Shown here piece by piece: positions 1,361-56,769 of a stretch of DNA of 64,000 bases (position 1 is its first letter; every line of letters begins with the position of its first letter). A program made the translations under genes and the position numbers. The notes beneath the pieces are model-generated. The model worked only from the letters and a program-made list of their open reading frames with translations. It ran no database searches and had not been told where the DNA came from. This DNA comes from an uncultured Clostridia bacterium (GTDB taxonomy: Bacteria; Bacillota; Clostridia; TANB77; CAG-465), in the NCBI GenBank assembly GCA_944386635.1, contig CALXBV010000021.1, positions 293-64,292 on the forward strand, in the 5' to 3' direction.

Positions 1361-1421
1361 ATGTATATTATATTATTTTTATATAATAAATTCAATTAAT
1401 TTCAGTATTGTGAATAAAAAT

Positions 1422-1949
1422 TCACAATACTTTATTTATTTGCCTTTTAAGTAAATCTTCAAAAATCTCTTTATGAACTTTCTCATCAATTATTATTCTT
1501 TTTATATTATCAATTATATTAGTATCATAAGTTTTACAAATTAAATTTCTATATTGAGTTATTGCATCCTGTTCTTGAATAATATTATTTTTAAGTACAT
1601 CTCTTATATCATCTATTTGATAATAAACATTACTGGCATCCCAAAAAGTACAATGATTACTAGATATATAACAAGATTTCATACCTAATTGATTTATTAT
1701 TGTTCCCAATATTTCTAAATGATGCATTTCTACAATAGATATTTTACCAATTATTTTTGCTATATCCTTATCTTTTAAATTTATATTTTGATAAACATAC
1801 TTTAAAACAGCAGTAAGTTCACTAACTTTTCCTGAAAAATCGTCTAATATTATATTGGCTAATATAATATTTTTCTTTTCTACATTTATTTTAGGATAAG
1901 AAATTTTGGCAACTTCTTCTAGTTTATTAAGCAAAAAATCATATTCCAT
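1422..1949 (-). CDS. ferritin-like protein of the Mn-catalase/CotJC family
   Basis: 175 aa. Paired E..H helices (IVEMHHLEILG and IDEKVHKEIF) plus SELTAVLKYVYQNI and QEQDAITQYRNLI align by eye with CotJC-type proteins. Confidence 0.55.
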   Translation of the reverse strand: MEYDFLLNKLEEVAKISYPKINVEKKNIILANIILDDFSGKVSELTAVLKYVYQNINLKDKDIAKIIGKISIVEMHHLEILGTIINQLGMKSCYISSNHCTFWDASNVYYQIDDIRDVLKNNIIQEQDAITQYRNLICKTYDTNIIDNIKRIIIDEKVHKEIFEDLLKRQINKVL

Positions 1950-1994
1950 ATTATCTCCCCCCTAACTAATAATATGTTAATATTTTTTATATAT

Positions 1995-2027
1995 GAAAAA
2001 AGCCTGAAAATATTAAATTTTCAAGCT
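1995..2027 (-). terminator. intrinsic terminator after the phosphoesterase pair
   Basis: On the minus strand, AGCTTGAAAA/TTTTCAGGCT form a 10-bp stem with one G-U pair, followed by a T-run. Confidence 0.55.
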
Positions 2028-2034
2028 TTTAATT

Positions 2035-2997
2035 TTACATTATAACATTTTTAGCACTAGTCACATTCTCAGTAACAAATTTAAGAACTTTTCCTTTACA
2101 AATAACAGTCTCAGAAAATTTAGCCGAAGGATAGCTAGTATTTTCATTTAAAAGACCTTTACTATCAAACACCATACCAGATGTAGAAGTTATCATAATA
2201 CCACCAAGTTCTTGTAAACAATTAACATGATAATGACCAAACTGTACGAAACGGATATTATAATTTCTGTTTTTAATAATAACATTATCCGACATATTTT
2301 CAAATTGCTGCCACATTTCTTTTTCTATTTTATAAGATTTAGTGTATGCAAGTTTACCAGTTCCATGTTGTAATCTTTTTACAACTCCTCTTATTACAAG
2401 ATTTGCTACAATTTCATTTATATGATGAAACTCTATTCCCTTTTCATTTAAGCCTCTTTGTACAAGAATAATAGGATTTATTGAATCACTTTTTTCAAAA
2501 GAAATATCCCTTTCTCCATTTATACAATAATATTTAAATTCTGGATATTTTGAAAATAAATCTATAGCAATCTGAGCCTGATCTTGTGCTGTTTTAGCTG
2601 TCAAATATAAATCTTGCTTTTTATAGCTTGGATGTCCCGCACATAAGTCACCAGATATATGAACATTTTGATAGCCACGTTCTTTTGCTAAGTCTAACAT
2701 ATATTTTAATGTACCATAGTCACAAAATGTACTACCAAAATATATATCGCTTAGCTCTAGCCATTTTTCTGTTACTTTCTCTTTACTTGCAAAAGAAATT
2801 ATTTCATAGTTTTTCTCATTAAATTTAGTTATATAATATGTTTTATTATTACTATTATACTTTATATTTCCAGTTGCTCCAATTAATTCTTCAATTTCTT
2901 CTTTTGTTAGCTCTAATTCTTTTAATGTACACTCCTTTAAGCGCATTTTAGAAAGTGCATTAGTTGCTTTTTGTGAGGTTAAAAAATCTTCTTTCAT
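2035..2997 (-). CDS. metallophosphoesterase-fold protein with degenerate catalytic motifs (paralog of the upstream gene)
   Basis: 320 aa. Motif I reads SDIY rather than DxH, and motif III reads GERD rather than GNHD/E. GD (ISGDLCAG) and GHxH (FGHYH) are retained. The N-terminal ~75 aa look HTH-like. Same length and layout as 3002..3961. Confidence 0.7.
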   Translation of the reverse strand: MKEDFLTSQKATNALSKMRLKECTLKELELTKEEIEELIGATGNIKYNSNNKTYYITKFNEKNYEIISFASKEKVTEKWLELSDIYFGSTFCDYGTLKYMLDLAKERGYQNVHISGDLCAGHPSYKKQDLYLTAKTAQDQAQIAIDLFSKYPEFKYYCINGERDISFEKSDSINPIILVQRGLNEKGIEFHHINEIVANLVIRGVVKRLQHGTGKLAYTKSYKIEKEMWQQFENMSDNVIIKNRNYNIRFVQFGHYHVNCLQELGGIMITSTSGMVFDSKGLLNENTSYPSAKFSETVICKGKVLKFVTENVTSAKNVIM

Positions 2998-3001
2998 ATA
3001 A

Positions 3002-3961
3002 CTACACCTCCTTTTGCCATGGACGATAAAATTCTATTTTTTCTCTTACTATTTTGTCGCCAACTATTGTAAGCTCTCTAAATACTCCGCCTGTTTTCCC
3101 AGTAATTCCCATACGCTTTTCTAGATCTCCATCATGTTGAAAGTTACCTGGCATAATAATAGTTACACCACTTATAGATAATGAGTATGTTGTATGAAAA
3201 TGTCCCGCTTGTATACTTCTTAAATTATAACATCTTCCACCAATATACACATCATTTAAATTACTTTCAAACACTCTAGAAAGATAAACTTGTACCTTAT
3301 ATGATGCTGCTCTTGCTGCGCCACCTTGAAGATGAATTAATCTAAAAACTATACCTGCATGTATAATGTTTCCTTCATAAGCATTTAAATAAGTAAACCT
3401 TTTTCCGCTTTTTGCCATTTTCGCCTCTAAGTATTTTATAGGGTCAAGTCCTCCCTTCATGCAAAAAGATTGGTCATGATTTCCAACAGATGTAATATAC
3501 CATAAGTCATACTTTTCAAGAATAGACATAAGTTCAGACACTTGATCAATTGCTCTATTATTCTTTAAATTATTTTCTTGTCCCCTATACACTCCAAAAC
3601 CGTCAAGTAAATCACCTGAGATGTGAACAAACTCAACGCCTCTTTTTTTTGCTTCAAGAAGAGTTTTATCTAATCCTTTTTTATCAAAATTCTTGCATCC
3701 AGCATGTAAATCTGAAATTTCCAAAAGTTTTAATTTTACCTCCTGACCTTTAGCTGGCAAATCAGATATTTTTATATAGGCCATATCACCTCGAGGAACT
3801 ATATAATATACATAGTCTTTAACTCTTGGATCATATTGATCTTTTATATTATATCCTATGTCCTTTAGATAGATAATATCTTCCATTGAAATCCCGAGTT
3901 GCTTTAACGTGAGCTGTTTATTTGTTAAATTTGCAATAAGTTTTTTGTTATATTTCTTCAT
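3002..3961 (-). CDS. metallophosphoesterase with a complete motif set, resembling the PolD small-subunit (DP1) phosphoesterase domain
   Basis: 319 aa with SDLHAG, ISGDLLDG, VGNHD and AGHFH. The strings GDLLDGFGVYRGQENNL and PGNFQ recall the DP1/B-subunit family as I remember it. N-terminal HTH-like region. Confidence 0.7.
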   Translation of the reverse strand: MKKYNKKLIANLTNKQLTLKQLGISMEDIIYLKDIGYNIKDQYDPRVKDYVYYIVPRGDMAYIKISDLPAKGQEVKLKLLEISDLHAGCKNFDKKGLDKTLLEAKKRGVEFVHISGDLLDGFGVYRGQENNLKNNRAIDQVSELMSILEKYDLWYITSVGNHDQSFCMKGGLDPIKYLEAKMAKSGKRFTYLNAYEGNIIHAGIVFRLIHLQGGAARAASYKVQVYLSRVFESNLNDVYIGGRCYNLRSIQAGHFHTTYSLSISGVTIIMPGNFQHDGDLEKRMGITGKTGGVFRELTIVGDKIVREKIEFYRPWQKEV

Positions 3962-4038
3962 AACAATCCCTCCTTAAATTTAAATTTAGGAAACCAAGCA
4001 AATATTTATTTAGCTCATATTCGTTAACAACTGACTTC

Positions 4039-4067
4039 ATTATATAGTATAAAATTTTTAGTGTCAA
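4039..4067 (-). promoter_or_regulatory. consensus sigma-A promoter for the phosphoesterase pair
   Basis: The minus strand reads TTGACA, a 17-nt spacer, then TATAAT. Both hexamers are perfect. It lies about 75 nt upstream of the ATG at 3961. Confidence 0.65.
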
Positions 4068-4185
4068 TAAATTTCTAAATATTAATTTATTTGTAATTTT
4101 TTTATAAATATAATTAAACAAAATAAAAAATGTACCATAAACATTATAACAATTCTCTAACATTTATAGTACATTCTAAATTATA

Positions 4186-4908
4186 TTACTGTATGGTACT
4201 CTCATTTTCAAATATCACCATGTCACAACAATCTTTTATCTTCTCATATTCTTCTTTACTTCTTAGTGTCCATGCGATTACATCTCTATTTTTTCTTTTT
4301 TGCTTTTGATAAAATTTTTTATCAATACTTAGATATTGGTAAGATATAAAGTTTGGTTTAGTAATAACATTAAATACCATTTTTCCTAAAACTATTTTTA
4401 AAATTCTTGATTTTACTTCTCTAATATTTTTACTAGAAATCTGTCCTCTTAATATATGTGGCGTATTCTTTTTTAACCAATAAACAATTCTTGGATCAAA
4501 AGACTGTATACTATATTTTCCATTATACTTGTTTAATATATTAATTAATTTTTCAATTAATTCCTTATATTTAACATTCGGTTTGACTTCTATTAATATT
4601 GGCACCTTTCCTGATACTAGAAGTAATACCTCCTCAAATGTTGGAATTTTATTTTCTGTTCCAAGAAGTTTTAGTTTTCTTACTTCACTTAATGTTAAAG
4701 TTGTAATATCATTTTTTATTCCAGTCATTCTCTTTAAACTATTATCGTGAAATACGACTATATATCCATCTTTTGTCATATTTACATCTATTTCAATAGC
4801 ATAACCCTTTCTTAGTGCATTTTCAAAAGCAACCATAGAATTTTCTGGTATATCTTCCTTATTAAAAATTCCTCTATGTGCTATATATTTAAAATTATTT
4901 GATTTCAT
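4186..4908 (-). CDS. glycerophosphodiester phosphodiesterase
   Basis: 240 aa with GDPD signatures HRG..ENS..AF and EIDV..TKDG..VVFHD. Confidence 0.85.
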   Translation of the reverse strand: MKSNNFKYIAHRGIFNKEDIPENSMVAFENALRKGYAIEIDVNMTKDGYIVVFHDNSLKRMTGIKNDITTLTLSEVRKLKLLGTENKIPTFEEVLLLVSGKVPILIEVKPNVKYKELIEKLINILNKYNGKYSIQSFDPRIVYWLKKNTPHILRGQISSKNIREVKSRILKIVLGKMVFNVITKPNFISYQYLSIDKKFYQKQKRKNRDVIAWTLRSKEEYEKIKDCCDMVIFENESTIQ

Positions 4909-21146: not shown

Positions 21147-21608
21147 TTAATATATTATTCCATTATTTCCTTTATATTTTTCAAAAAGTTTATTACATTC
21201 ATCATGATCTATTTGAACCATATTTATATCTAAACTGCCTTTTCCTTTAAGATAATCATATAATGCACTATCTCTAAATCCTATTTGAGCTGCATCATCT
21301 CTTGTAGCACCATAATATACTTTTTTTATATTTGCCCAAGCAATTGCACAAAAGCACATTGGACATGGTTCACAACTAGTATATAAAATATAATCTGACA
21401 AATCATATGTATTCAATACATTACATGCATTTCTTATAGCTTGTATTTCTGCATGAGCTGTAGGATCATTATTTTTTAATACTTGATTATTTCCAGTAGC
21501 TATTACATTTCCATCTTTGTCTACAACAACAGCACCAAAAGGTCCACCTTCATTATTTAGCATACCCTTTTGTGCCTTTTCATTTGCTATCTGCATATAC
21601 TTATTCAT
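21147..21608 (-). CDS. CDA-fold nucleoside/guanine deaminase
   Basis: 153 aa. Zinc site HAE...PCPMC. The N-terminus GGPFGAVVV..DG is like GuaD-type guanine deaminases. Confidence 0.75.
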   Translation of the reverse strand: MNKYMQIANEKAQKGMLNNEGGPFGAVVVDKDGNVIATGNNQVLKNNDPTAHAEIQAIRNACNVLNTYDLSDYILYTSCEPCPMCFCAIAWANIKKVYYGATRDDAAQIGFRDSALYDYLKGKGSLDINMVQIDHDECNKLFEKYKGNNGIIY

Positions 21609-21914
21609 ATTTTCCCTCTTTTTATATTTATGCTATATTCTTTATACCATTAATATCAAAAAAAATCAATTATATTTATATAAACATATTCTAAATTTCT
21701 CAACTTGTTACTATTTATTTATATTATTTATTATACAGAATAATATGATACAAAAGACATATATTATTGAATACTTTAATTATCATTATTAATTTTATAA
21801 CAATTATTGAACTAAAAAAAATACATAATAAAATTTTAATACTCCAGTAATATATAATTGAAAAATAAGCTTATGTTTGATATAATATTTATATAATTAA
21901 AGTAAAGGAGAAAA

Positions 21915-22715
21915 ATGAATTCAAATACTAAAATAGAAGAAGAAATGGTAAATTTTGCAAAAGAAAGAGCAGAAGAAATTATACAGCCATCTTCCATAAG
22001 CATCGGAAATAATATTGGTCTATTAGTCGACGGTGTTTTTGGATGGTTAGGCGCTTGGGGACAAAAGCAAAAAATAAAACAAGAAAAATACATAGAAAAT
22101 TTTAAAAACACAATTAACAAAAAAATTTCTGATATTCCAAAAGAAAACTTAAAAGAGCCTAAAATGTGTGACATAGGACCAATAATAGATGCAAGCAAAT
22201 ATTATTATGAGAATGATTATTATGTAGAAATGTTTTCCGATTTACTGCAATCAGCTTGCGATACTAATTTTATATATAAAATACATCCATCATTTGTAAA
22301 CTTTATTAAAGAATTATCACCACTAGACGCAAAACTTTTAAATTCATTCAATTATAATAAAACCTATCCAATTGCAGATATTTTAGAAATTGATAAAGAT
22401 AAAAAAATTACTCCGTTTTATAAAAGCTTATTTTATTTTTATGATATTAATAATCATTTTACTATACTTGAACATTTAAATTTGACAAATTCTTTAAATA
22501 ATTTGATCAGATTAGGATTAGTAAAAAAAAATAAAGATATATTGAAATTAAATTACAATTATGATGATTTTAAGAATCATTTTTTATACAAAATTTATGA
22601 AAATTTAAAGGAAAACCCACAAAATCAGTTAAAAATTGTAAAATATAGAATAGAATTAACTGAAACTGGTATAAACTTTTTAAACTGTTGTATTAAAAAT
22701 AAAAAAGTTTTATGA
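21915..22715 (+). CDS. Abi-alpha (DUF4393) family protein, putative abortive-infection gene
   Basis: 266 aa. The family-typical core YYVEMFSDLLQSACD....IHPSFVNFIKELSPLDAKLLN matches my memory of DUF4393 (EMFANLLA...HPSFVEIIKQLSPDEAKIL). AAGGAG RBS. Confidence 0.65.
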   Translation: MNSNTKIEEEMVNFAKERAEEIIQPSSISIGNNIGLLVDGVFGWLGAWGQKQKIKQEKYIENFKNTINKKISDIPKENLKEPKMCDIGPIIDASKYYYENDYYVEMFSDLLQSACDTNFIYKIHPSFVNFIKELSPLDAKLLNSFNYNKTYPIADILEIDKDKKITPFYKSLFYFYDINNHFTILEHLNLTNSLNNLIRLGLVKKNKDILKLNYNYDDFKNHFLYKIYENLKENPQNQLKIVKYRIELTETGINFLNCCIKNKKVL

Positions 22716-22740
22716 CCATTACTTATCATAAAACTTTTTT
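22706..22740 (+). terminator. intrinsic terminator after the Abi-alpha gene
   Basis: AGTTTTATGA / TCATAAAACT stem containing the stop codon, followed by T7. It abuts the 3' end of the tRNA on the other strand. Confidence 0.65.
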
Positions 22741-22817
<77 letters not shown>

Positions 22818-22860
22818 AATAACATAATATATTATACAACAAATATCTATATAATTCAAG

Positions 22861-23274
22861 TTATTCCTTTCTTAACTCCTTAAAAAAATCTCTTAATATT
22901 TGAGAACATTCATTATTTTCTATGTATTCAAATAAATCTTTATCATATTCATAAGTATTACTATCTAATGCACCAAAGAATACTTTTTCAACACGTGATT
23001 GTTTTATTGCTCCAAAACACATTTGACAAGGATATAGAGTAACATACATTATACATCCATCAAGTCTCCATGACTTTAATTTTTTACATGCTTTATCTAT
23101 ACATAAAATTTCCGCATGTGCTAAAACATTTTTTTTAGTTTCACGTAAGTTATGTGCTCTTGCAATTATTTTATCATCTTTTACAATGACAGCCCCAACT
23201 GGTACTTCTTTTTTAGCATATGCTTTTTTTGCTTCTTTTAATGCTTCAATCATATATTTATCCACATTATTCAC
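22861..23274 (-). CDS. tadA: tRNA-specific adenosine-34 deaminase
   Basis: 137 aa. MIEALKEAKKA, VPVGAVIV, HAEI...PCQMC. Size and motifs are typical of TadA. Confidence 0.85.
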   Translation of the reverse strand: MNNVDKYMIEALKEAKKAYAKKEVPVGAVIVKDDKIIARAHNLRETKKNVLAHAEILCIDKACKKLKSWRLDGCIMYVTLYPCQMCFGAIKQSRVEKVFFGALDSNTYEYDKDLFEYIENNECSQILRDFFKELRKE

Positions 23275-23427
23275 CTTTTTAATTATACAATATATTGAAT
23301 AAAAAATAAAGTATCATTATACTTGAATTTTAAATGAAAAATGATATAATAATAACGTATACTTATTTAGCTAGTTAATAGACTGGTAATCTCTAAGTTA
23401 TTTATCTAATGCAAAATCTTTAAAAAT

Positions 23428-23504
23428 GACTTTGTAACTCAGTTGGATAGAGTGCTTCCCTCCTAAGGAAGAAGTCGGCGGTTCAAATCCGCCCAAGGTC
23501 ACCA
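23428..23504 (+). tRNA. tRNA-Arg (anticodon CCT)
   Basis: GACTTTGTAACTCAGTTGGATAGAGTGCTTCCCTCCTAAGGAAGAAGTCGGCGGTTCAAATCCGCCCAAGGTCACCA. Anticodon stem CTTCC/GGAAG, loop CT-CCT-AA, encoded CCA. Confidence 0.9.
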
Positions 23505-28610: not shown

Positions 28611-28791
28611 ATCTATTTCACCTCAATTTATATCTTTTTTCGACATATATATTATACCATAACTTTATGAAAAGTAAATAAACAAAAATTACAGTATTGT
28701 CACATATTGAATATCATTTTATACTATGTTATAATTAATCTACATTTCAAATATTTAACTACAAAATAATTTTAGAAAAGAGGTGTTTATT

Positions 28792-36002: not shown

Positions 36003-36341
36003 CTAAAATTTAACTAGTTCTTCAATAGCTTCACCCATAGACTTTTGTAAATCAGCTAATATAACATTTATTTTCATTTCACATTCTAAAATTTTTCTAC
36101 AATCTTCATTTTGTATGACAATAGAATATAAATTCTCCATTTCTTGTTGTTTTTCTTTTGTTATATCTTTTCCATTTATGTAGCTAATTTGAACTTCATT
36201 TTGCTTTTCTTTGAAATCTTTTAGCATGTTATATACATTCTCATCTTTTTTTAAATCTTCTTTTAATTTTAAATACTCTTTATATTCTTGTGTTTGCTTA
36301 AATGAAGACACAAGATTGCTAATATCATCATGAAAACTCAT
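36003..36341 (-). CDS. YlbF/YmcA family regulatory protein
   Basis: The family pattern fits: FKQTQEYKEYLKLKEDLKKDENVYNMLKDFKEKQ plus a C-terminal helical region. Start placed at the second ATG, at 36341. Confidence 0.6.
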   Translation of the reverse strand: MSFHDDISNLVSSFKQTQEYKEYLKLKEDLKKDENVYNMLKDFKEKQNEVQISYINGKDITKEKQQEMENLYSIVIQNEDCRKILECEMKINVILADLQKSMGEAIEELVKF

Positions 36342-36404
36342 TAATATCATCCTTTCTTTAGGATAATATTATATATCATTTTTTTCTTTTTTTAAATGTT
36401 TTAT

Positions 36405-37097
36405 TTAAAATTCATCTAAACTAGTACAAATATCATACTGCACTTTTGTAAGCTTTTGTTTTCTTCTATTTACAAGTTCAGTTATATTTTGAATTATATT
36501 ATTCTCGTTTATACAATCATTATTAAATAATACTTTTGATTTTAATTTATTTAACTTACCAGCTATATTTTTTATTTCATTAATATTAAAACTATCATAT
36601 GCATCATACCAATCATTACATAGCTCTTTAAAATCATCCACTTTATTTAAGCACTTTTCCACACTAGAATATATTTTCTTTTTAAATTCAGTACTTGAAA
36701 TAAAATTTTTTATTCCTCCAAAGAAATCATCTATATAATTAAAAAATATATTACCATATTTTTTTCCAGCACTTACTATATCAATTCCTAAATTTATACA
36801 ATTTGTAAGTCCACCTTTAAAAGCAGTATCTATCATTTTATTGATTTCTTTTATATTATCATCTGATATTCCCATCATTTCTAAGCCTTCTCTTATACTA
36901 CTTGTAAGTGCCACATTTAATATTTGTAAAAAATCCTTTTCTTTTAATACTTTTTTTACATCAGATAAAATCTCTTTAATATGCTCATTAACGGGCATTC
37001 CTTTTATTACGTAATTTGCACCCTTATCTATAACATTTAATATTATATTTATTATCTCTTCTTTATTTTTTTCTATTTCAACTTCTGATTCTTTCAT
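36405..37097 (-). CDS. hypothetical helical protein
   Basis: 230 aa. Begins 2 nt after the ATPase gene. No TM segment and no recognised motif. Confidence 0.5.
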   Translation of the reverse strand: MKESEVEIEKNKEEIINIILNVIDKGANYVIKGMPVNEHIKEILSDVKKVLKEKDFLQILNVALTSSIREGLEMMGISDDNIKEINKMIDTAFKGGLTNCINLGIDIVSAGKKYGNIFFNYIDDFFGGIKNFISSTEFKKKIYSSVEKCLNKVDDFKELCNDWYDAYDSFNINEIKNIAGKLNKLKSKVLFNNDCINENNIIQNITELVNRRKQKLTKVQYDICTSLDEF

Positions 37098-37099
37098 TT

Positions 37100-38227
37100 T
37101 TACTCCTCCTTCATATTTACTAACTTATTTATTATTTTGTTTTTCACATTTTCAAATCTTATAACTCCTATAGATTTTAATAACCTTTTTATATTATATT
37201 TAATGTAAATCTTATTATCAGTTGATATATACTTGTCTATAAAAATACTATTTTTTATAATACCATAAAAACTGATTCCAATTTTCTTTTCTAATAAATT
37301 TATTATATCTTTTTTTCCGCAAAACATATTTGCTATAAATTTACTTTTCTTTACAACTTTTTCATCTATAAATTTTGTCTGTATATTATATTCTCTTACA
37401 GTATTATGAGAAATCTTAATACAAAAAATAATATCTACATTTATACTTTCTAATACATTATAAATGTTATTTATCATAAGTGTAGATGTATCTACTATCA
37501 CATAATCATAAAATCTTTTTAAATATAATAATATCTCTATAATAATATCAGTACATAAAGTAGATACACATTTAGAATTTAATATGTATTTAAGATTCTC
37601 ATATTTATCACTATCACTTTGATAGTCTACTATGTCCTTTAGTTCATTATTTTTAATATCTTCTATTAAGCTACTTAAAGCATAATTTTTACTACTTTTT
37701 ACATATATATCTAAACTTGGATATATAAGATCTAGATCTACAACAACCACACTTTTATATGTATTTCTAGCTATTTCTTCAGATAATATTTTACAAAATA
37801 TTGTTTTACCGGACTTTCTTAAACCAGTCACAATTATAATATTACTTTTTTCCTCTTTAGTTTTATATATTACCATTTTAGGATTATTTATATTATCTAA
37901 AATTTCATCAAAAGGAACTGTATCTCCAACTATAATATTAAATATTTCTTTAGAAAAAAGTTTTTCTTTTATATCTTTTGTTATCTCTTTTAATATTACA
38001 ATAATTCTATTTTTACTGTTCTTATCTTTTATATTACATAGATAATCTATAAAACTCATTTTACCATGAAGAGCATCTCTTGTTATTATAATAAAAGATT
38101 CATTTAAATTAATCATTTCTAATACTTGTTCCTTTGTTTTTAAAATATAAACTTCATATTTATCACAATATACATCTTTAATTCTTTTTTCTAAATATTT
38201 ACTATTGATTGCTATTATCATTTTCAT
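37100..38227 (-). CDS. P-loop ATPase with an N-terminal pseudo-receiver domain (TadZ/CpaE-like architecture)
   Basis: 375 aa. The N-terminal ~115 aa are CheY-like but lack the acidic pocket (IIAINSK rather than DD). Walker A GLRKSGKT. VVVVDLDLIYPSLD and VIVDTS strings resemble MinD/ParA-class proteins. Overlaps the upstream ORF by 26 nt. Confidence 0.6.
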   Translation of the reverse strand: MKMIIAINSKYLEKRIKDVYCDKYEVYILKTKEQVLEMINLNESFIIITRDALHGKMSFIDYLCNIKDKNSKNRIIVILKEITKDIKEKLFSKEIFNIIVGDTVPFDEILDNINNPKMVIYKTKEEKSNIIIVTGLRKSGKTIFCKILSEEIARNTYKSVVVVDLDLIYPSLDIYVKSSKNYALSSLIEDIKNNELKDIVDYQSDSDKYENLKYILNSKCVSTLCTDIIIEILLYLKRFYDYVIVDTSTLMINNIYNVLESINVDIIFCIKISHNTVREYNIQTKFIDEKVVKKSKFIANMFCGKKDIINLLEKKIGISFYGIIKNSIFIDKYISTDNKIYIKYNIKRLLKSIGVIRFENVKNKIINKLVNMKEE

Positions 38228-40439
38228 TTAAAAGTATCCTTTCGTATTCATTTGCTATTACCACAATTGGTGCTTTATTGTTTGATACAGAAAGTATAGC
38301 CTCTCCCTTTTGCAAGCAATCCACATTAAAATCTGATAAATCTATAAATTTATTTAAACTATCTGTATCTTTATATGTCATTTTAAATATCAATTTAAAA
38401 GACGAATTATTTAATATGCTCTTTGCATAAATACCATTATCATAAGTAAAAAAATCGTTAATATCTTGAGTTATAGTTATAATTGAAGCTTTTCTTTTTC
38501 TTATTGTCTTATACATATTAGATATACTTAATAATAAGTCTTTGCTTTGTGCATATTTCCACATTTCATCTATATATATAATTGTATTTTTATCATTTAA
38601 ATAATTATTTGCCAAACTATCTAAGATATAACTTATAATTTTAGCATTATTTTTTAAATACTTTGTATCGATTACATATAAGCTATTATCTAAAGATATA
38701 TTTGTTATATTAGAAAAAAATTTAATATCATTTTCTATCATATCATTTAAAATATTTTTTAAATGATAGTTATCTATAATATTTAACAGATCATTTAATG
38801 TAGGAAATTTATCATTGTCTATAAAAACATTGTCTAAATATATTAAATTATCATCTTCATTTTTAAATATTGTACTTATATCATTAGTTATATTAAATTT
38901 ATTATATATTTCTTTTAATTTAATTTTTAAATATTCTTTATACGTATTTTCAATATCACATACTTTGATTAAAAAATTTACTATTTTTTCTATCTTTTCT
39001 TGTAAATAATTACTTACATCATCTACTTTATCAATATCTTTTTTAGTTATTTGTAATATATTAAAATACTTACCACCACTTATATTCTGTCCTTCTATAT
39101 TACTACAAAGCTTTATATACTCACTCTCGATATCAAAAACTATCTGCTTCATATTCTTAAAAAAGTTTCTTATAATGTTTAACTTAACAAAATATGATTT
39201 TCCACTTCCACTGCTTCCAAATATGCACATATTAGAATTTTCATATTTATCTGCGAATATGTCTAATATACATATTTTATTGTCCATTTTAGTATATCCT
39301 ACTAATACTCCATTTATATCTATAAAATTATTACTAATATATGGAAAAATATTTGCTAAACTACTACTGGTTAAGAAAATATTATACTTATTATTTTTTT
39401 GTAAAGGTAAATTAGAAAGATAATAATTTAAATGTCTGAAATTAGTAACTTCCGAAATAAAATTTTTTGAATAAAGTTTTGCTTTAAAATTTGATACACT
39501 CTTATATAAAGCTGTTAAATCCTCTGAATAAAAAGTTAATATAATATTTACATTGAATACTTCCTGATTTTCAATTTGTATCTTTTTACGTAATTCTTTT
39601 GCCTCCCTAGATGATTGATTTATTATATCCATATTATTTTGATTAACTTTAGTAGTATGCTTTTCACTCTCAGATAGACCTATTGTATAAGTAATATCAT
39701 TTAGTACTTTATATGTATCTAATTTTTTTATATAAATAGACATATCATAATCTATATTTTTATCTATATCATTTATTAAATCTAAAAAGAAAATGTACTC
39801 TGGCAAAGAAATAATATGTAAGGATATAACATATTTGTTACCTACTATGATATATTTAAAATTAGTATTGTCAACAAAATCTGGTAAAACCTCATTTATG
39901 TCTATAATATCACCTCTTTATTAATAGTCTCATACATTAATACTTGTAATTTTTTCTTAGATACTATTCTTTTAGTTTTGCATCCAATATTATCTATACC
40001 ACGTACTATATTATCTATACTATTAATGTCATATGAAAAATCTTCTTTCAACGAGACTACTAAATAAAACTTTGTAGTATATATTTTTTCTTTTTCTAAC
40101 TGGGCTCCAATACTATAAATATAATTATTAACATGTTCCAAATACTTTTTACTTCCATTTTTATTTATATAGATTTTAAGATTGGATATATATTTTTGAA
40201 TATTAATTTTTTTATTTGATATATAAATTTGAAAATCAAAATTAAGTTCACGAAGAAATTCACTATAAAGATTTAAAATATTAGATTGAACATCTATTGA
40301 AAAATTTAAAAATGTAACTGGTTCAACTTCATAAATATACACTTTTTTTACAATGTCTTTTTCTTTAACTAGTATATATTTATCTGTTATATCTATAAGA
40401 TTAAATATTTCTTTTACATCACCATATTTTATTAGTCAT
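38202..40439 (-). pseudogene. VirB4/TrsE-like conjugation-type ATPase, reading frame broken twice
   Basis: The C-terminal 534-aa frame has Walker A GSSGSGKS, IVFDIESEY, Walker B IIYIDEMWKY and ITITQD. The N-terminal domain (YIYEVEPVTFLNFSIDVQSNILNLYSEFLRELNFDFQI) is in another frame and ends with TAG at 39902. The only RBS-plus-ATG (GGAGGGG-ATG at 40439) reads MTNKIW-stop, and the long frame opens 1 nt later. Confidence 0.6.
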
Positions 40440-40460
40440 CCCCTCCATTCTTACAACAAA

Positions 40461-40527
40461 TTTATACCATTATTTTATATAGACGTCAATAGTATTTTAT
40501 TCACATTTTGTCGCAAGTTTCGACATA
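40461..40527 (-). promoter_or_regulatory. composite promoter, copy 1 (upstream of the VirB4-like gene)
   Basis: The minus strand reads TATGTCGAAACTTGCGA (17-mer containing TGTCGAA), 21 nt, TTGACG, a 17-nt spacer ending TGG, then TATAAA. The ATG at 40439 follows 21 nt later. Confidence 0.6.
40511..40527 (+). repeat. 17-nt perfect direct repeat, copy 1 (TCGCAAGTTTCGACATA)
   Basis: Identical to 41816..41832. Its reverse complement contains the Spo0A-box consensus TGTCGAA. Confidence 0.9.
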
Positions 40528-40605
40528 CATTATTTTACTTTTATATACTAAATTATCACAAAGTAAAAAGCTGTGCATATAATTTAGTATATAGGAGATG
40601 ATAAT

Positions 40606-40770
40606 ATGAATGATAACAATAATAACAACATGAACAAAAAATTAATGGACGTATTAGGCTCTTTAGATAAAGAGAAAATAGAACAAGTAACAAGAATGGT
40701 TCAAAATATGTCTAGTGAGGATTTAAATAATATAGCAAAAATGCTAGGTGTAAATAACAAGAAAAAGTAA
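40606..40770 (+). CDS. small Asn-rich protein (54 aa), missing from the ORF track
   Basis: Own translation: MNDNNNNNMNKKLMDVLGSLDKEKIEQVTRMVQNMSSEDLNNIAKMLGVNNKKK. AGGAGA RBS. The stop lies 1 nt before the next ATG. Confidence 0.55.
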   Translation: MNDNNNNNMNKKLMDVLGSLDKEKIEQVTRMVQNMSSEDLNNIAKMLGVNNKKK

Positions 40771-40771
40771 T

Positions 40772-41155
40772 ATGAATGAAGATAATAAAGATGCATTAAA
40801 TAATCTTATCAATAGTATACAAGAAAAGATGAATAATAATGAAAGCAGTCATAAAGAGGAAAATAATACTAGTTCTTTTGATATATCTTCTATTTTAAAT
40901 GCTTTTAGTGCCAATAAAGAAGAGAATGATAATACTACTAATAGTGAAAATAACGGAACAGGTTTTGATCCTTCTATACTTTTAAAAATGCAAAAAATCA
41001 TGAGTACTATGAACGGTAATAATCCTAAAAAAGAATTACTGCTTTCTCTTAAACCTTTTCTTAGAAAATCTAGACAAGATAAAATGAATGATTATCTAAC
41101 CATTCTAAATGTTATAACTGTTTTAGAGTCTTTTAAAAACAAGGATAGTGATTAA
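40772..41155 (+). CDS. Asn/Ser-rich hypothetical protein
   Basis: 127 aa. Low-complexity N-terminal half and a structured C-terminus (LLLSLKPFLRKSRQDKMNDYLTILNVITVLE). Confidence 0.55.
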   Translation: MNEDNKDALNNLINSIQEKMNNNESSHKEENNTSSFDISSILNAFSANKEENDNTTNSENNGTGFDPSILLKMQKIMSTMNGNNPKKELLLSLKPFLRKSRQDKMNDYLTILNVITVLESFKNKDSD

Positions 41156-41156
41156 T

Positions 41157-41618
41157 ATGTATTATTCAAATTATAATCCATTTTATATGCGTAATAGAAA
41201 TTATTATAATAGAGGAATACCAAATACATTAGTTAATAATACTCAAAATAGCAAAGAAAATAGTAAAGAAGAAGAAAAAAAAGATATTGAACCGCCTCAA
41301 AGCGATACAATATCTTTCCAAAAGTTTTACAATAATAATGCTAGTCAAAATAAAGAAGTTAATGATAGCAATATTAGCGAAAATGAAACTAATACACGCA
41401 CTAATAATTCTACAACTAGAAAGAGAAATAATAGATTTTTTTCATTTGATAAAAATCAAATTAATATTCTAGGTTTCTCTTTTGAAATAGATGATCTAAT
41501 AATAATAGGAATAATTATATTATTGCTATTAGAATCAGATGAAAACTATGCACTTATTATTATATTAGGATTAATACTGCTTAATGTAAACTTAAGTGAT
41601 ATCCTTAATATTTTCTAA
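41157..41618 (+). CDS. Asn-rich protein with a C-terminal TM segment
   Basis: ATG at 41157 behind AAGGATAG. C-terminal hydrophobic stretch LIIIGIIILLLLESDENYALIIILGLILLNV. Confidence 0.5.
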   Translation: MYYSNYNPFYMRNRNYYNRGIPNTLVNNTQNSKENSKEEEKKDIEPPQSDTISFQKFYNNNASQNKEVNDSNISENETNTRTNNSTTRKRNNRFFSFDKNQINILGFSFEIDDLIIIGIIILLLLESDENYALIIILGLILLNVNLSDILNIF

Positions 41619-41741
41619 ATAGTATTTTGTAAGTAGTACATCTATCTCTTCACTAGTTTTTAATATTCGTTCATACGAACAATTTTCTTCAATTTCTTTG
41701 TCTAACCTTTGTTTTAAAATCTCGATTTCGTCAGTTATCAT
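41592..41741 (-). CDS. Spo0E-family aspartyl-phosphate phosphatase-like protein (49 aa), missing from the ORF track
   Basis: Own translation: MITDEIEILKQRLDKEIEENCSYERILKTSEEIDVLLTKYYLENIKDIT. It fits the Spo0E pattern (IE.L+..L....... S.E.D.L...Y). GAGGAGA RBS. The 3' end overlaps the convergent 156-aa ORF by 27 nt. Confidence 0.6.
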   Translation of the reverse strand: MITDEIEILKQRLDKEIEENCSYERILKTSEEIDVLLTKYYLENIKDIT

Positions 41742-41765
41742 ACATATCTCCTCTTTTTTTACATA

Positions 41766-41832
41766 TTTATACCATTTGTTAAGCCAATAGTCAACATTTT
41801 ATACTTGCTTTTTCATCGCAAGTTTCGACATA
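41766..41832 (-). promoter_or_regulatory. composite promoter, copy 2 (upstream of the Spo0E-like gene)
   Basis: Same blueprint as 40461..40527: the 17-mer, 21 nt, TTGACT, a 17-nt spacer ending TGG, then TATAAA. The ATG at 41741 follows 24 nt later. Confidence 0.6.
41816..41832 (+). repeat. 17-nt perfect direct repeat, copy 2 (TCGCAAGTTTCGACATA)
   Basis: Identical to 40511..40527. Confidence 0.9.
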
Positions 41833-41912
41833 TAAAACTATGTGGTATAAAACTAGTGTATGTAAAAAAAGTATTTAAATTTAATATATATGAAAAATAG
41901 TGTTTTTTCTTA

Positions 41913-43202
41913 CTATTTTGCTATTATTTTTGAAGATACTTGATTTTCTTTACCAAGTTTACCTAAAAATTCTTTTATATCTTCTTTAGTTATATTTTTC
42001 AAAGCTTCTATTTGATAATATACATCTGTTTTATTTAATATAGAATCTATAATTCTTCTATAACTTACATTTAAATTATCTGATGATAAGATAGCCTCGC
42101 CTATCTTTTTCTTTTTTATTGTCTCAAATAATTCTTCATCAACAGGCATATTTTTTATCTGCTCAATATACTCCAAAATATCTTTTTCCACTTCATCAAT
42201 ATTTATTGAAAGTGTTGAAATAATGACATGTGAAAATGAGTCACTACCCTCATATTGCATATCTATGCTATCGTTTACTTTGCCTGAATTATACTCTTTT
42301 TCAAAGAAATCTGATTGCTTAGAAAAATACATATCTGATATTATATTAACCATAATTTCATTTTTTAATATTTCCTTTCCATCAACTAAATCCAATTTAT
42401 ATCCTATGCAAAGTTGAGGTAAATATATATCCATCTTTTGCACTATTTCTTTTTGTTCAATTTTTTTATCTTCTTCTACTCTAAACTTTTCAATTTTATT
42501 TTTAGGTATACTATTATTCTCATATTTTTTTAAGTTTTCCTCTATTAAACTTATAGTATGTTCTACATCTACATCTCCAACTACTATAAAAAACATATTT
42601 TGAGGACTATAAAATGTATTATAACAAGTATATAGTAGCTCTTTAGTTATATGTGATATTGACTCTATTGTTCCTGCTATATCTATTCTTACCGGATTTT
42701 GATTATACATTGCACGTAAAGCATTAAAGTACACCATAAAATTAGGATCATCATCATACATACTTATTTCCTGTCCTATTATTCCTTGCTCTTTTTGTAC
42801 ATTTTCATCCGTAAAATATGGTTCTTTAATAAGTTTTACAAGCATTGCAATAGATTCATCAAATTTTTCTGAAGTTTCAAAGAAATATACTGTTTGATCA
42901 AATGATGTATATGCATTAGATGATACTCCCATTTTTGAGAATAAATCTAGTGCATTTGCTCCTTCTTTTTCAAACAATTTGTGCTCTAGGAAGTGAGCAA
43001 TACCATCTGGTACTTTTGTTCTTTTATTTGTAGTTATATCTACAAAATCATTATCTACAGAGCCATATTTTGTTCCAAACATTCCTATTTTTTTTGAAAA
43101 TCCAGGCTTTTTGCAAATATATACTTCAAGCCCATTAGACAATGTTGTAGTAAATGTGCTTTCTCCCAATTCCTGTGAAGTCATAACAGCTATTTTATTC
43201 AT
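41913..43202 (-). CDS. M16 (pitrilysin) family zinc peptidase, active subunit
   Basis: 429 aa with the inverted zinc motif HFLEHKLF (HxxEH). Confidence 0.85.
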   Translation of the reverse strand: MNKIAVMTSQELGESTFTTTLSNGLEVYICKKPGFSKKIGMFGTKYGSVDNDFVDITTNKRTKVPDGIAHFLEHKLFEKEGANALDLFSKMGVSSNAYTSFDQTVYFFETSEKFDESIAMLVKLIKEPYFTDENVQKEQGIIGQEISMYDDDPNFMVYFNALRAMYNQNPVRIDIAGTIESISHITKELLYTCYNTFYSPQNMFFIVVGDVDVEHTISLIEENLKKYENNSIPKNKIEKFRVEEDKKIEQKEIVQKMDIYLPQLCIGYKLDLVDGKEILKNEIMVNIISDMYFSKQSDFFEKEYNSGKVNDSIDMQYEGSDSFSHVIISTLSINIDEVEKDILEYIEQIKNMPVDEELFETIKKKKIGEAILSSDNLNVSYRRIIDSILNKTDVYYQIEALKNITKEDIKEFLGKLGKENQVSSKIIAK

Positions 43203-44439
43203 TTACCTCACCTCCTAATAAGAAAACTTTTTCAATTTCTACTTTGTTTGCCATATTAACAACGTCTTGCATAGTAACATTTCTTATTCCATCTCTCATT
43301 TGTTCAATTGTTATACTTTCATCTTTAAATGCTATTAAATTAGATAATTTCATTTTTGCCATAGCAACTTTTGAATCTCTCCATTCTAAAAGATCTGCAA
43401 GTAAACTATCTCTTGCACTTTTAAATTCTATATCTGTTATATTTCCTCGTCTCATATCATCTAGTTGCTTCCTTATTACTTCTAAAGCTTTTTTATAATT
43501 TTCCTTATTTATTCCAGCATATATTACTATTATATCTTTAAATCTATAATATCTTGATCTTACAGTATATGCTAAAGATTCTTTTTCTCTTACATTTTGA
43601 AACAATTTTGAAGATGGCGTAGTACCTAAAATTGCATTATATACATTTAAAGCATAAAAATCTTGAGGTGTACAATTATTTATTCTAAGTCCTAATGCCA
43701 ATACACTTTGTGTTGTGTCTTGTACTTCTTTTACTTCTTCATATTTATAGTTCTCTTGTAATTTGACATTATACTTTAAATCTTCAATTACACTAGTGTT
43801 TTTATCATGCTCGTTAAATACTTTAGATATCTTATTATCTATATTGTCATATCCATCTAAGTTTCCTGATACTATTACAGTTATACATTGATTTATCAAT
43901 TCATTATATGCTTGCTTTATATCTTTTAGCTCTAATTTTTTCACAACATCAGCTTCACCATATAAATATGTACCAAAAGGCTCACCCTTACATAACAATT
44001 CTTCTGCTCTTTGTATACCGTATTTTAATTTTTCATCTTTTCTTTCATTAATTCTTTGTAATATAAAATCTTTTTCTCTATTTATGCTATCTTGCGTCCA
44101 GTCTAAAGGATTATATATCATTTCTTCTAAGAAATCTAATATCTTATCTAATAGTTCCTCTTTACTTGGTATAAACTCTCTATTTACAAACTCTATTCTA
44201 AATTCCAAATTATATAAATCTCCAAGTTTTTCAATATTTACATCAAAATTAGCACCATATAGTGAATTTAAATATTTTTCAATATCTTTTTGTGTAGGAT
44301 ATTTATTAGAGCTTTTTGCCATTAAAGACCCAAGTACTGCATAACTTGAAAAAATCTTGTTATCATTAACTTCTAATGTAAAGTTATATGATATATAAAT
44401 GCTCTTAAATTTTTTGTCATTAATCTTATAAATTCTCAT
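43195..44439 (-). CDS. M16 family peptidase-like protein, non-catalytic partner
   Basis: 414 aa. M16 fold pattern without HxxEH. Overlaps its partner gene by 8 nt. Confidence 0.75.
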   Translation of the reverse strand: MRIYKINDKKFKSIYISYNFTLEVNDNKIFSSYAVLGSLMAKSSNKYPTQKDIEKYLNSLYGANFDVNIEKLGDLYNLEFRIEFVNREFIPSKEELLDKILDFLEEMIYNPLDWTQDSINREKDFILQRINERKDEKLKYGIQRAEELLCKGEPFGTYLYGEADVVKKLELKDIKQAYNELINQCITVIVSGNLDGYDNIDNKISKVFNEHDKNTSVIEDLKYNVKLQENYKYEEVKEVQDTTQSVLALGLRINNCTPQDFYALNVYNAILGTTPSSKLFQNVREKESLAYTVRSRYYRFKDIIVIYAGINKENYKKALEVIRKQLDDMRRGNITDIEFKSARDSLLADLLEWRDSKVAMAKMKLSNLIAFKDESITIEQMRDGIRNVTMQDVVNMANKVEIEKVFLLGGEVNE

Positions 44440-55330: not shown

Positions 55331-55376
55331 AAACACAACATTTATGTCGAATTATGTAGTTTCTTTATCTTGAATG

Positions 55377-55440: not shown

Positions 55441-56769
55441 ATGAACACTCAGCTCATCTCACTTATTAATATTATAAGTCAGATAATTATATTTTTTTCA
55501 TTTATTATAACTATAAGTCAATCATATACTAATAAAAAAATAAATATATCTAAAAAAATATATGTCTTTTGCTTTAGTGTTATAATATCAGTAGTAATAA
55601 ATCTTTTAGACAAAGATTTATCTTTTTTAATATATAGTATTAGCATAATTCCTTTATTTGTAGTATTTAAGTATATATTAGGACAAAAAAATATTAATTC
55701 AATATTATGCATATTATTTTTCTATATAATGATATCTTTTAGTGAAGTGTTATCCTATTTTATAGTAAAAGGCTCATTTAATGCTAGTTTATCTAGCTTT
55801 TATTTTAACCTAAAAGTATTTATAACATATATAATTTTAAAAAATTTAATATTCATTTTACTTTTAATATTATTAAATGAATATATAAAGAAAAATAACA
55901 ATATACTTCACGAAATATTAAATACTCTTACTAATAAAGAAATATTACTCCTAATAACATTATACTGTAGTATTATAATACCAGGGCTAATAAGATTCTT
56001 TTATGAAAGATCTGAATATACATTTAATTTTTTAACAATTAATATAATACAACTTGCAATTACATGTATATTATTATTTTCATATTTTAGATATATACAT
56101 TTTTATAAATTAAGTCAATCAGAACTTACACAATCAAAATTATACAATAAAACTCTTATTGAACTTGTAGAAAATTTACGTGTTTTAAAACATGATTACA
56201 ATAATATTTTGCAATCTATAAATGGATATATAGTTACTAAACAATATGATCAATTAGAAAAACACATGAAAAATTTAACTAATGAGGCTAGTAATATTTC
56301 CGTTATTGAGTCTATAAATCCTGAAATTATTAATCAGCCAGCAATTTATGGAATAGTTGGTGCAAAATATTTTACTGCTAATTCCAAAAATATAAAATTT
56401 AAATTAGATGTGTTAACAGATATAAGTAAAATAGATTTTGATTTTACTGATCTTTCAAGAGTCCTTGGAATACTACTAGACAACGCAATTGAGGCGAGTG
56501 AAAAATCAGACGATCCTAAAATATCACTATCATTTACTTACAATAAAGCTAAACAGGCAAATATTATAGAAATTAAAAATTCTATCAATCCAAACTCGAA
56601 AATTGATGTATCTAAAATATTCAATAAAGGAGTATCTAGTAAAAAAGTAAAATCAGGGCTTGGGCTTTGGGAAGTAAAGAAAATAATATCATCTAAATCT
56701 AATTCTCAAATTTATGCTAATATAGAAAATAATATATTTTGTCAAACTATAATAATAGAAAAAATATAA
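55441..56769 (+). CDS. AgrC/VirS-type (HPK10) sensor histidine kinase
   Basis: 442 aa. About six N-terminal TM segments, H-box LKHDYNNILQSINGYI, N-box LGILLDNAIEAS and G-box SGLGLWEVKKII. Confidence 0.75.
   Translation: MNTQLISLINIISQIIIFFSFIITISQSYTNKKINISKKIYVFCFSVIISVVINLLDKDLSFLIYSISIIPLFVVFKYILGQKNINSILCILFFYIMISFSEVLSYFIVKGSFNASLSSFYFNLKVFITYIILKNLIFILLLILLNEYIKKNNNILHEILNTLTNKEILLLITLYCSIIIPGLIRFFYERSEYTFNFLTINIIQLAITCILLFSYFRYIHFYKLSQSELTQSKLYNKTLIELVENLRVLKHDYNNILQSINGYIVTKQYDQLEKHMKNLTNEASNISVIESINPEIINQPAIYGIVGAKYFTANSKNIKFKLDVLTDISKIDFDFTDLSRVLGILLDNAIEASEKSDDPKISLSFTYNKAKQANIIEIKNSINPNSKIDVSKIFNKGVSSKKVKSGLGLWEVKKIISSKSNSQIYANIENNIFCQTIIIEKI

Follow-up and report, generated by a model that had tools for sequence, protein, structure and literature searches.

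The question that this locus raises is why two promoters, one in front of a small Spo0E-like gene and the other in front of an operon for a split VirB4-like ATPase, should carry the same sequence at the same distance from the -35 element. The locus lies in a 64,000-nt stretch of the genome of an uncultured Clostridia bacterium (GenBank assembly GCA_944386635.1, contig CALXBV010000021.1), which we refer to as the window. Sequence comparison argues that the shared element, a 15-mer, is a real regulatory element that is conserved in dozens of related species and reused by clostridial phages. We lean modestly towards the 15-mer being a 15-bp operator for a dimer of phosphorylated Spo0A (Spo0A~P), which would likely activate the two sigma-A promoters of the Spo0E-like gene and the VirB4-like operon. 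What we infer here is which protein binds, in which direction it regulates and where transcription starts; activation is the probable direction, judging from the layout of the sites.

A sequence-only reading of this DNA had described a perfect 17-mer repeated twice, each copy followed on the minus strand by a fixed 21-nt gap, TTGAC(G/T), a 17-nt spacer and TATAAA, with a 12-mer, AATGGTATAAAT, common to both promoters and an ATG 21 nt (copy 1) or 24 nt (copy 2) downstream of the -10 hexamer. A search of the window reproduced all of this. The gap between the 15-mer and the -35 is exactly 21 nt at both promoters, P1 and P2, in a minus-strand reading of 40300..42000, and both copies have the extended -10 TGgTATAAA and qualify by sequence as sigma-A promoters of the extended -10 type. 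A consensus promoter scan of the window lists neither of them, which is not evidence against them because the scan rule demands T at the last -10 position and TATAAA fails it. The two copies might be put down to chance, to the relic of a recent local duplication or to a small dispersed repeat without a regulatory role, and the window is AT-rich and full of promoter-like strings (29 found versus 24 expected in a local scan). However, the chance expectation for the 17-mer is 0.12 matches in the window, two or more matches arose in only 1 of 100 shuffles, and there is no third copy in the 64 kb at up to three mismatches. The 21-nt gaps and the other sequence between the shared blocks are unrelated between copies 1 and 2, and a recent duplication is excluded because this inter-block sequence differs wholly.

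Orthologous loci were fetched through homologues of the ATPase and not by the motif, in identity tiers of 85, 72, 52 and ~50%. Their synteny is identical, and at both promoters the 15-mer is invariant bar its central base and the length of the 21-nt gap is kept. At P2 the -35 and -10 hexamers do not vary at all, and at P1 they vary little (TTGACG/T, TATAAA/G). Among six lineages the 15-mer has a mean pairwise identity of 1.00 at P2 and 0.96 at P1; in the same order the values are 1.00 and 0.94 at the -35 and 1.00 and 0.91 at the -10, whereas flanks, gap and spacer reach 0.34-0.65 (spacer 0.65 at P2, 0.51 at P1). In the most distant lineages the TraC-side promoter has G as its central base, and at partner promoters located by tblastn rather than by motif position 9 is C, G or T; the other changes found there, A15G and T1A, are both rare, T1A being confined to one species. 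Phylogenetic footprinting thus bears out the proposal of one blueprint for two co-regulated promoters. The choice of the 17-mer as its unit stands in part: 15 bases are conserved, and the first two vary among species.

The footprint indicates that the functional unit is the near-palindromic 15-mer TGTCGAAA-N-TTGCGA. It consists of TCGAAA-N-TTGCGA with a TG extension at the left, an odd-length palindrome (7+1+7) in which 14 positions are invariant and the sole free position, base 9, is the dyad centre. Its left half matches the extended 0A box perfectly; its right half reads TGCGA in direct register and TCGCAA on the opposite strand, with the dyad about base 9. Both the asymmetry of the element (A6 against C) and its orientation towards the promoter are conserved. 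The match to the Spo0A consensus TGNCGAA that had been pointed out within the 17-mer is present as TGTCGAA at 40525..40519 and 41830..41824 on the minus strand; this heptamer is the Spo0A core box, with contacts at G2, C4 and G5 (PMC3485338). Some species have a perfect inverted 0A box, TTCGACA, within the 21-nt gap.

The breadth of the architecture was assessed with the pattern TGTCGAAASTTGCGA-N21-TTGAC in one genome per species (GTDB). It occurs in 44 stretches, 43 of them in metagenome-assembled genomes (MAGs) of uncultured Clostridia with a G+C content of 20-28%, such as 'Clostridium sp. CAG:465' and MAGs from rabbit, ruminant and human gut. The gene downstream in all 43 is either Spo0E-like (49-71 amino acids) or TraC-like, the latter being the N-terminal part of the split ATPase, and the assignment is the same even if several kb of the contig separate the two units; Spo0E-like orthologues stand behind the same promoter module in ~40 MAGs. 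The clade uses the architecture for these two transcription units only. Clade DNA totalling 474 kb contains 77 sites with at most one mismatch, the centre being left free, and TTGA lies exactly 21 nt downstream in 74 of them. The sequence-only reading had named one outcome that would count against regulation, namely that the 17-mer is a common dispersed repeat in unrelated contexts. Unrelated contexts do occur, nearly always coupled to a promoter, and two copies in 64 kb together with the phase lock to the -35 do not describe a dispersed repeat or mobile element. With the blocks kept across lineages whose proteins are ~50% identical, shuffle statistics, footprint, species scan and phase lock refute chance, duplication and dispersed repeat alike, and we regard an explanation of that kind as vanishingly improbable.

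The sole match of the species scan outside the low-GC clade lies in a Clostridia MAG of 41% G+C (locus L160, 1881..3155). Its architecture is complete (15-mer, 21 nt, TTGACT, 17 nt, TATAAT) and precedes a gene for a secreted DUF4474 protein, which is adjoined by a small acid-soluble spore protein (SASP) gene. A weaker copy of the 15-mer lies 5' of an extracytoplasmic function sigma factor gene in two further loci (L005 and L006) and is without counterpart in the window.

The same 15-mer is found in phages and prophages. Viral contigs scanned for the bare 15-mer gave at least 120 matches; among the matches listed, most are promoter-coupled, and those that resemble chance are high-GC single matches and a group within a small Cys-rich open reading frame (ORF). 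In gut phage families of 36-41% G+C (L011-L130, e.g., L012, L014, L036, L074 and L088) the 15-mer is kept and its flanks have diverged; it stands 10 nt 5' of TTGAAA, TTGAAT or TTGATT, followed after 17-18 nt by a TATAAT-like -10. One phage family has a second conserved TGTCGAA whose TG lies 10 bp upstream, which is the canonical tandem spacing. In a cassette of low-GC prophages and metagenome sequences (L015, L026, L093, L125, L175-L185 and the low-GC members of L186-L207) the 15-mer is followed by 11 nt, AGGAWWW, 11-12 nt and GTAGAAT. This resembles a sigma-H promoter and matches RNAGGAWWW-N11-12-RNNGAATWW, which we take to be the sigma-H consensus. The cassette precedes diverse accessory genes and is present twice in each of L093 and L175; BLAST of the cassette against annotated phages and plasmids returned irrelevant short matches only. 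The orientation of the 15-mer to the promoter is the same in the clade, the gut phages and the prophages, the spacings of 10-11 and 21 nt between site and promoter differ by one helical turn, and the site is associated with both sigma-A-like and sigma-H-like promoters. Taken together, constant orientation, a shift of one turn and two promoter types suggest a factor that binds the DNA, makes contact with RNA polymerase and can act with two holoenzymes. Working with both the sigma-A and the sigma-H holoenzyme is a hallmark of Spo0A.

The gut phage promoter with the 15-mer is located between the tail and lysis genes and the lysogeny module. It is followed by an RNA-like element with a 5' hairpin, a conserved CTTCAAGTTCTGG and a second hairpin with nine compensatory pairs, and then by an ORF of 41-47 amino acids; Rfam, run on the window and eight phage loci, reported two tRNAs and nothing else. 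Base-pairing between the 15-mer and CTTCAAGTTCTGG was considered and dismissed, the hexamer that they share taking in the variable central base. The cargo of the sigma-H-like cassettes is mostly without a Pfam family, apart from one chemotaxis receptor and one protein with a YabA-like region.

A Spo0A protein is encoded in the clade itself. When all fetched DNA was searched by tblastn with Bacillus subtilis Spo0A (a query validated by Pfam), full-length Spo0A with Response_reg and Spo0A_C domains was found in two clade MAGs that have the Spo0E-like module (L138 and L147), 2-5 kb from the module and preceded by the gene for the sporulation protease YabG. The closest solved relative of the clade protein is PDB 1LQ1. 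In the phage families of 36-41% G+C, Spo0A_C is encoded as a protein of its own (Pfam, 117 bits), and E213, R214, R217 and I220 of its conserved recognition helix are invariant. Eighty loci were fetched through this protein, 75 of them with enough upstream flank, and 75 of these 75 have a single 15-mer on the same strand, 1.7-4.9 kb upstream. In one of the phage families that have the 15-mer, no Spo0A_C lies nearby. In L138, a more distant clade member (1397..4707), as in L147, the Spo0E-like gene and three small convergent ORFs adjoin yabG and spo0A and not the VirB4-like operon; TGCGCTATTTCGACA, upstream of spo0A in L138, holds an inverted extended 0A box. In tblastn searches of the window and the clade loci with AbrB, SASP, SpoVS, SpoIIID, SigF and SpoVT, the one hit was the SASP gene beside L160.

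If the 15-mer is a Spo0A operator, one protomer of a Spo0A~P dimer would occupy TGTCGAAA and the other the inverted half TCGCAA, with the centre of the operator at about -64 on the assumption that transcription starts 7 nt past the -10. As Spo0A~P accumulates, both sites would be occupied and RNA polymerase would be stimulated as by an upstream activator. One output would be the Spo0E-like Spo0A~P phosphatase, which would exert negative feedback on Spo0A activity; the other would be the split VirB4-like ATPase operon, which would be switched on. Several points weigh against this proposal. With 14 invariant positions, the site is far richer in information than the 7-bp 0A core. Its right half matches a 0A box poorly, and it is a dyad with a free centre rather than a pair of tandem direct repeats ~10 bp apart; Spo0A on abrB DNA (PDB 1LQ1) is arranged head to tail in tandem. 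A centre near -64 is not a classical position for Spo0A activation at sigma-A promoters, and both promoters look strong enough without an activator. No spo0A gene was seen by tblastn in the window or in the loci of its closest relatives. Among other, diverse viral loci that encode Spo0A_C, none of 63 carries the 15-mer within 6 kb; the co-occurrence of site and Spo0A_C in phages is therefore specific to one lineage. This is consistent with a host factor, perhaps mimicked by the phage protein, and not with a private phage operator.

Alternatively, the 15-mer might serve a symmetric, dimeric helix-turn-helix regulator other than Spo0A that has been conserved throughout Clostridia, in which case it would overlap the 0A box by coincidence or through competition with Spo0A. 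The near-palindrome pairs at 6 of 7 positions when C follows and varies freely at the dyad centre alone, the invariance of the other 14 and the clade regulon of two transcription units would suit a dedicated regulator, the other TGTCGAA boxes of the window lack the right half, and the 15-mer is missing from the 63 other viral loci. Nevertheless, there is no candidate regulator gene in the conserved locus, and the Xre-type repressors that neighbour the phage sites are too diverse for one common operator. The 15-mer is identical in hosts and phages of 21 to 41% G+C, which calls for a factor that has itself been highly conserved. The constant orientation towards the promoter would be needless at a purely symmetric site, the left half has no mismatch to the extended 0A box, and one phage family adds a TGTCGAA 10 bp upstream. 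On balance, we hold a different regulator to be unlikely, though not remotely so.

The direction of regulation could also be the reverse. Spo0A, or a stand-alone Spo0A_C paralogue, might repress two constitutively strong promoters at commitment to sporulation, so that the phosphatase is removed and positive feedback results. The apparent strength of both promoters keeps this alternative alive: they are near consensus (TTGACT or TTGACG, a 17-nt spacer and TGnTATAAA) and should fire unaided, and the TGTCGAA at 28639..28645 of the window is on a predicted start site, the classical repressing position. A site centred at about -64, however, does not overlap RNA polymerase, and the strict 21 nt, like the 10-11 nt at the weaker phage promoters, fits contact with the polymerase on one face of the helix, as in activation. 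Sigma-H promoters of B. subtilis with an upstream Spo0A site (spoIIA and spo0A Ps) are activated, which also counts against repression. We consider repression distinctly unlikely.

Extending the proposal of a Spo0A~P-dependent activator site, the 15-mer may be a high-affinity dyad operator for Spo0A-family domains in general, a portable 'onset of sporulation' switch used in three settings; on the sequences compared we would entertain this tentatively, as a possibility falling a little short of even. In the uncultured gut Clostridia it would control a deeply conserved pair of chromosomal units, the gene of a Spo0A~P phosphatase and the split, domesticated VirB4-like ATPase, and in clostridial prophages it would control accessory-gene cassettes. 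Gut phages with a receiver-less Spo0A could fire the switch without the phosphorylation signal of the host, the output being a small structured RNA and a 41-47-amino-acid peptide beside the lysogeny module.

Table 1. Positions of the repeat, the promoters and the genes discussed, in window coordinates unless a locus is named.
Feature	Position	Strand	Remarks
17-mer, TCGCAAGTTTCGACATA	40511..40527 and 41816..41832	+	exact repeat
17-mer read on the minus strand, TATGTCGAAACTTGCGA	40527..40511 (copy 1) and 41832..41816 (copy 2)	-	
15-mer, putative operator, copy 1, TGTCGAAACTTGCGA	40511..40525	-	kept at orthologous TraC-like promoters; central base C, G or T
15-mer, putative operator, copy 2, TGTCGAAACTTGCGA	41816..41830	-	kept at orthologous Spo0E-like promoters, central base excepted
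Sigma-A-type promoter P1	40461..40489	-	-35 TTGACG 40489..40484; 17-nt spacer ending TGG; -10 TATAAA 40466..40461
Sigma-A-type promoter P2	41766..41794	-	-35 TTGACT 41794..41789; 17-nt spacer ending TGG; -10 TATAAA 41771..41766
M16 peptidase gene	41913..43202		first in local order in a minus-strand reading, before P2
Spo0E-like gene, 49 amino acids	41592..41741	-	Pfam SpoOE-like, E 5.7e-5, 23.4 bits, cut-off 23
Three small ORFs (54, 127 and 156 amino acids)	40606..41618	+	ORF list; no family matches
Divergent promoter candidate, ATCACA-17-TATAAT	40555..40583	+	for the three small ORFs
Short ORF MEGMTNKIW*	40419..40448	-	three-frame translation; holds ATG 40439
TraC-like N-terminal fragment of split VirB4-type ATPase	39902..40435	-	weak NCBIfam VirB4_plasma match
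VirB4/HerA-type P-loop ATPase, 534 amino acids	38202..39806	-	Pfam P-loop_TraG, 37.9 bits; AAA_10 and DUF87 above cut-offs
P-loop protein of ParA/MinD kind, 375 amino acids	37100..38227	-	weak P-loop matches
230-amino-acid protein	36405..37097	-	always the next operon gene across orthologous loci
YlbF/YmcA-family gene, cluster end	36003..36350	-	Pfam Com_YlbF, 61.6 bits
Stand-alone Spo0A_C genes of phages	L036:1477-1863, L074:1343-1723, L104:6584-6886, L208-L287	- (L036, L074), + (L104)	1.7-4.9 kb downstream of the 15-mer

The window is a chromosome segment of 25% G+C with mutS, mutL, miaA, ksgA, two M16 peptidase genes, YqeY and other housekeeping genes (Table 1 for the locus itself). The assignment of P2 to a Spo0E-like gene is upheld by a Pfam match just above its cut-off. 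The protein has SEEID where SQELD, which we take to be the type motif of the Spo0E family, would be expected, and profile and motif together predict a member of this phosphatase family.

Three small ORFs lie between the two promoters in the window and are conserved beside the Spo0E-like gene in all orthologous loci, L138 included. They point away from P1 and run towards the Spo0E-like gene, which they overlap by 27 nt. They are rich in Asn, and the last one has a C-terminal hydrophobic segment. The overlap of the Spo0E-like gene with the 156-amino-acid ORF on the opposite strand (41592..41618) is kept in orthologous loci and leaves no room for terminators, and transcription interference could therefore occur. 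In the divergent promoter region (40555..40605 on the plus strand, and its orthologues) a string ATCACAAAG...TGCATATAAT is conserved, as is the ribosome-binding region TATAGGAGATGATAATATG. The distance from this string to the 15-mer is 5 to 30 nt with no phase lock, and because it is not conserved the 15-mer is taken as dedicated to the TraC-side promoter.

On the other side of P1, the description of the operon as VirB4-like is supported in part: the ATPase matches the TraG P-loop, AAA_10 and DUF87 models above their cut-offs, and the NCBIfam VirB4/TraC models score 60-179 bits against cut-offs of 325-1177, the protein being split into two genes. Pfam TraC-like is on record for 181-amino-acid orthologues of the upstream fragment. 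The label 'TadZ-like' for the 375-amino-acid protein was not borne out; its P-loop matches are all below threshold, and weak CbiA/AAA_31 matches are on record for an orthologue. Nor does ATG 40439 start the first gene of the operon, as had been supposed. Three-frame translation shows that it is in frame with ATG 40448 in a nine-codon ORF that ends at TGA 40421..40419 and is out of frame with the TraC-like ORF. The TraC-like frame itself has a TGA at 40438..40436 and is open just past it, and its first canonical start is GTG 40342, within the conserved N-terminal region. In most relatives the TraC-like ORF begins at the ATG within aaATGGAGGGA, with a GGG run and the ATG in frame; in the window and in L003, of the 85%-identity tier by ATPase, the run is GGGG and the ancestral ATG is thereby out of frame. 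A non-canonical start, frameshifting or initiation at GTG 40342 is possible for the TraC-like gene.

The VirB4-like locus is chromosomal and syntenic, with housekeeping genes on its flanks. Neither a type IV secretion coupling protein nor a VirB6-like channel nor a relaxase was found among the flanking genes (Pfam) or in orthologous loci. PADLOC gave just weak HerA/mad8 matches on the operon, the 230-amino-acid protein has no match in Pfam, NCBIfam or PADLOC, and megablast of 38000..44000 found no match among annotated plasmids and phages. Elsewhere in the window, two cytidine/tRNA-type deaminase genes, an Abi_alpha (abortive infection) gene and two tRNA-Arg genes on opposite strands are clustered at 21147..23504 and may form a small inserted island.

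The core box TGTCGAA is itself frequent in the window, with seven occurrences versus 1.7 expected and 0 of 100 shuffles reaching seven. The five outside the 17-mer (10587, 28639, 53012, 55345 and 63236) are without the right half of the 15-mer. The one at 28639 stands just past a -10 of the form TGgTATAAT, 5' of a 1444-amino-acid ORF. The one at 55345..55351 is 25 nt upstream of a TTGACT that precedes a histidine kinase gene (55441..56769, SPOB_a and HATPase_c_5), alongside which no response regulator is evident.

Other classes of element were compared with the 15-mer and rejected. As a sigma-54 promoter, its TGTC and TTGC are 2 nt too close; Gram-positive LexA boxes, cre sites, CtsR heptads and TnrA/GlnR sites do not apply, the outer ACA not being conserved; and a terminator hairpin would have a stem of only 5 bp, at copy 1 only.

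The 0A core box and Spo0A-controlled promoters are known. None of the open-access papers covered by a full-text search prints the 15-mer or its 13-mer variants, and a paper on Spo0E of Clostridioides difficile contains nothing on control of the spo0E promoter. Within the literature searched, four features appear to be undescribed: a composite operator of 15 bp, the phase lock that couples it to sigma-A and sigma-H promoters, its regulon of two units in an uncultured clade, and the reuse of the element by phages, including those with truncated spo0A. If the binder is Spo0A, the 15-mer would represent a second recognition mode that is much more specific than the 7-bp 0A box, and there would be a direct feedback loop from Spo0A to a Spo0E-like protein in Clostridia, in which it is poorly understood how Spo0A activity is controlled. 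The choice to sporulate would be linked to a chromosomal VirB4-like ATPase system, and the truncated spo0A genes of human-gut phages would gain a concrete DNA target. The 15-mer with its sigma-H or sigma-A promoter cassette could help to locate genes under stationary-phase or sporulation control in uncultured Firmicutes and the phages of these bacteria. Should the site be bound by a protein other than Spo0A, then a very conserved clostridial regulator remains to be found.

The closest known relatives of the 15-mer are the 0A boxes of B. subtilis and C. difficile, at abrB, spoIIG, spoIIE, spoIIA and spo0A. Like these, its left half has a perfect core with the usual A extension, its phage copies go with sigma-A-type and sigma-H-type promoters, some of its promoters have extra 0A-like boxes, and two clade members (L138 and L147) encode Spo0A. 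Unlike these, it is 15 bp long, with an inverted and imperfect second half and a free centre instead of a 7-mer or a tandem pair, and it is nearly invariant over dozens of species. At spoIIG and spoIIE the Spo0A site overlaps the -35, whereas the 15-mer stands at a fixed 10-11 or 21 nt from it. The spo0E gene of B. subtilis is repressed by AbrB and hence depends indirectly on Spo0A~P. In both cases a Spo0A~P phosphatase gene would be under the Spo0A pathway in a feedback arrangement, but the link here would be direct, through an upstream operator that is shared with an unrelated ATPase operon.

Two further comparisons extend beyond the 0A boxes. As at the class I activator sites of CRP (-61.5 and -72.5), a dimer site would precede the -35 on a constant face of the helix and could shift by one helical turn; in contrast to CRP, the protein family would be another one, and the site is an odd-length palindrome with conserved asymmetry and orientation. 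Truncated spo0A homologues occur in human-gut phages (Schwartz et al. 2023, mBio, PMC10294663), and the phage lineage that carries the 15-mer encodes the same kind of receiver-less Spo0A_C protein. The portion of that paper considered here names no DNA target for these proteins, whereas the 15-mer provides a candidate target 1.7-4.9 kb upstream of the gene in one lineage.

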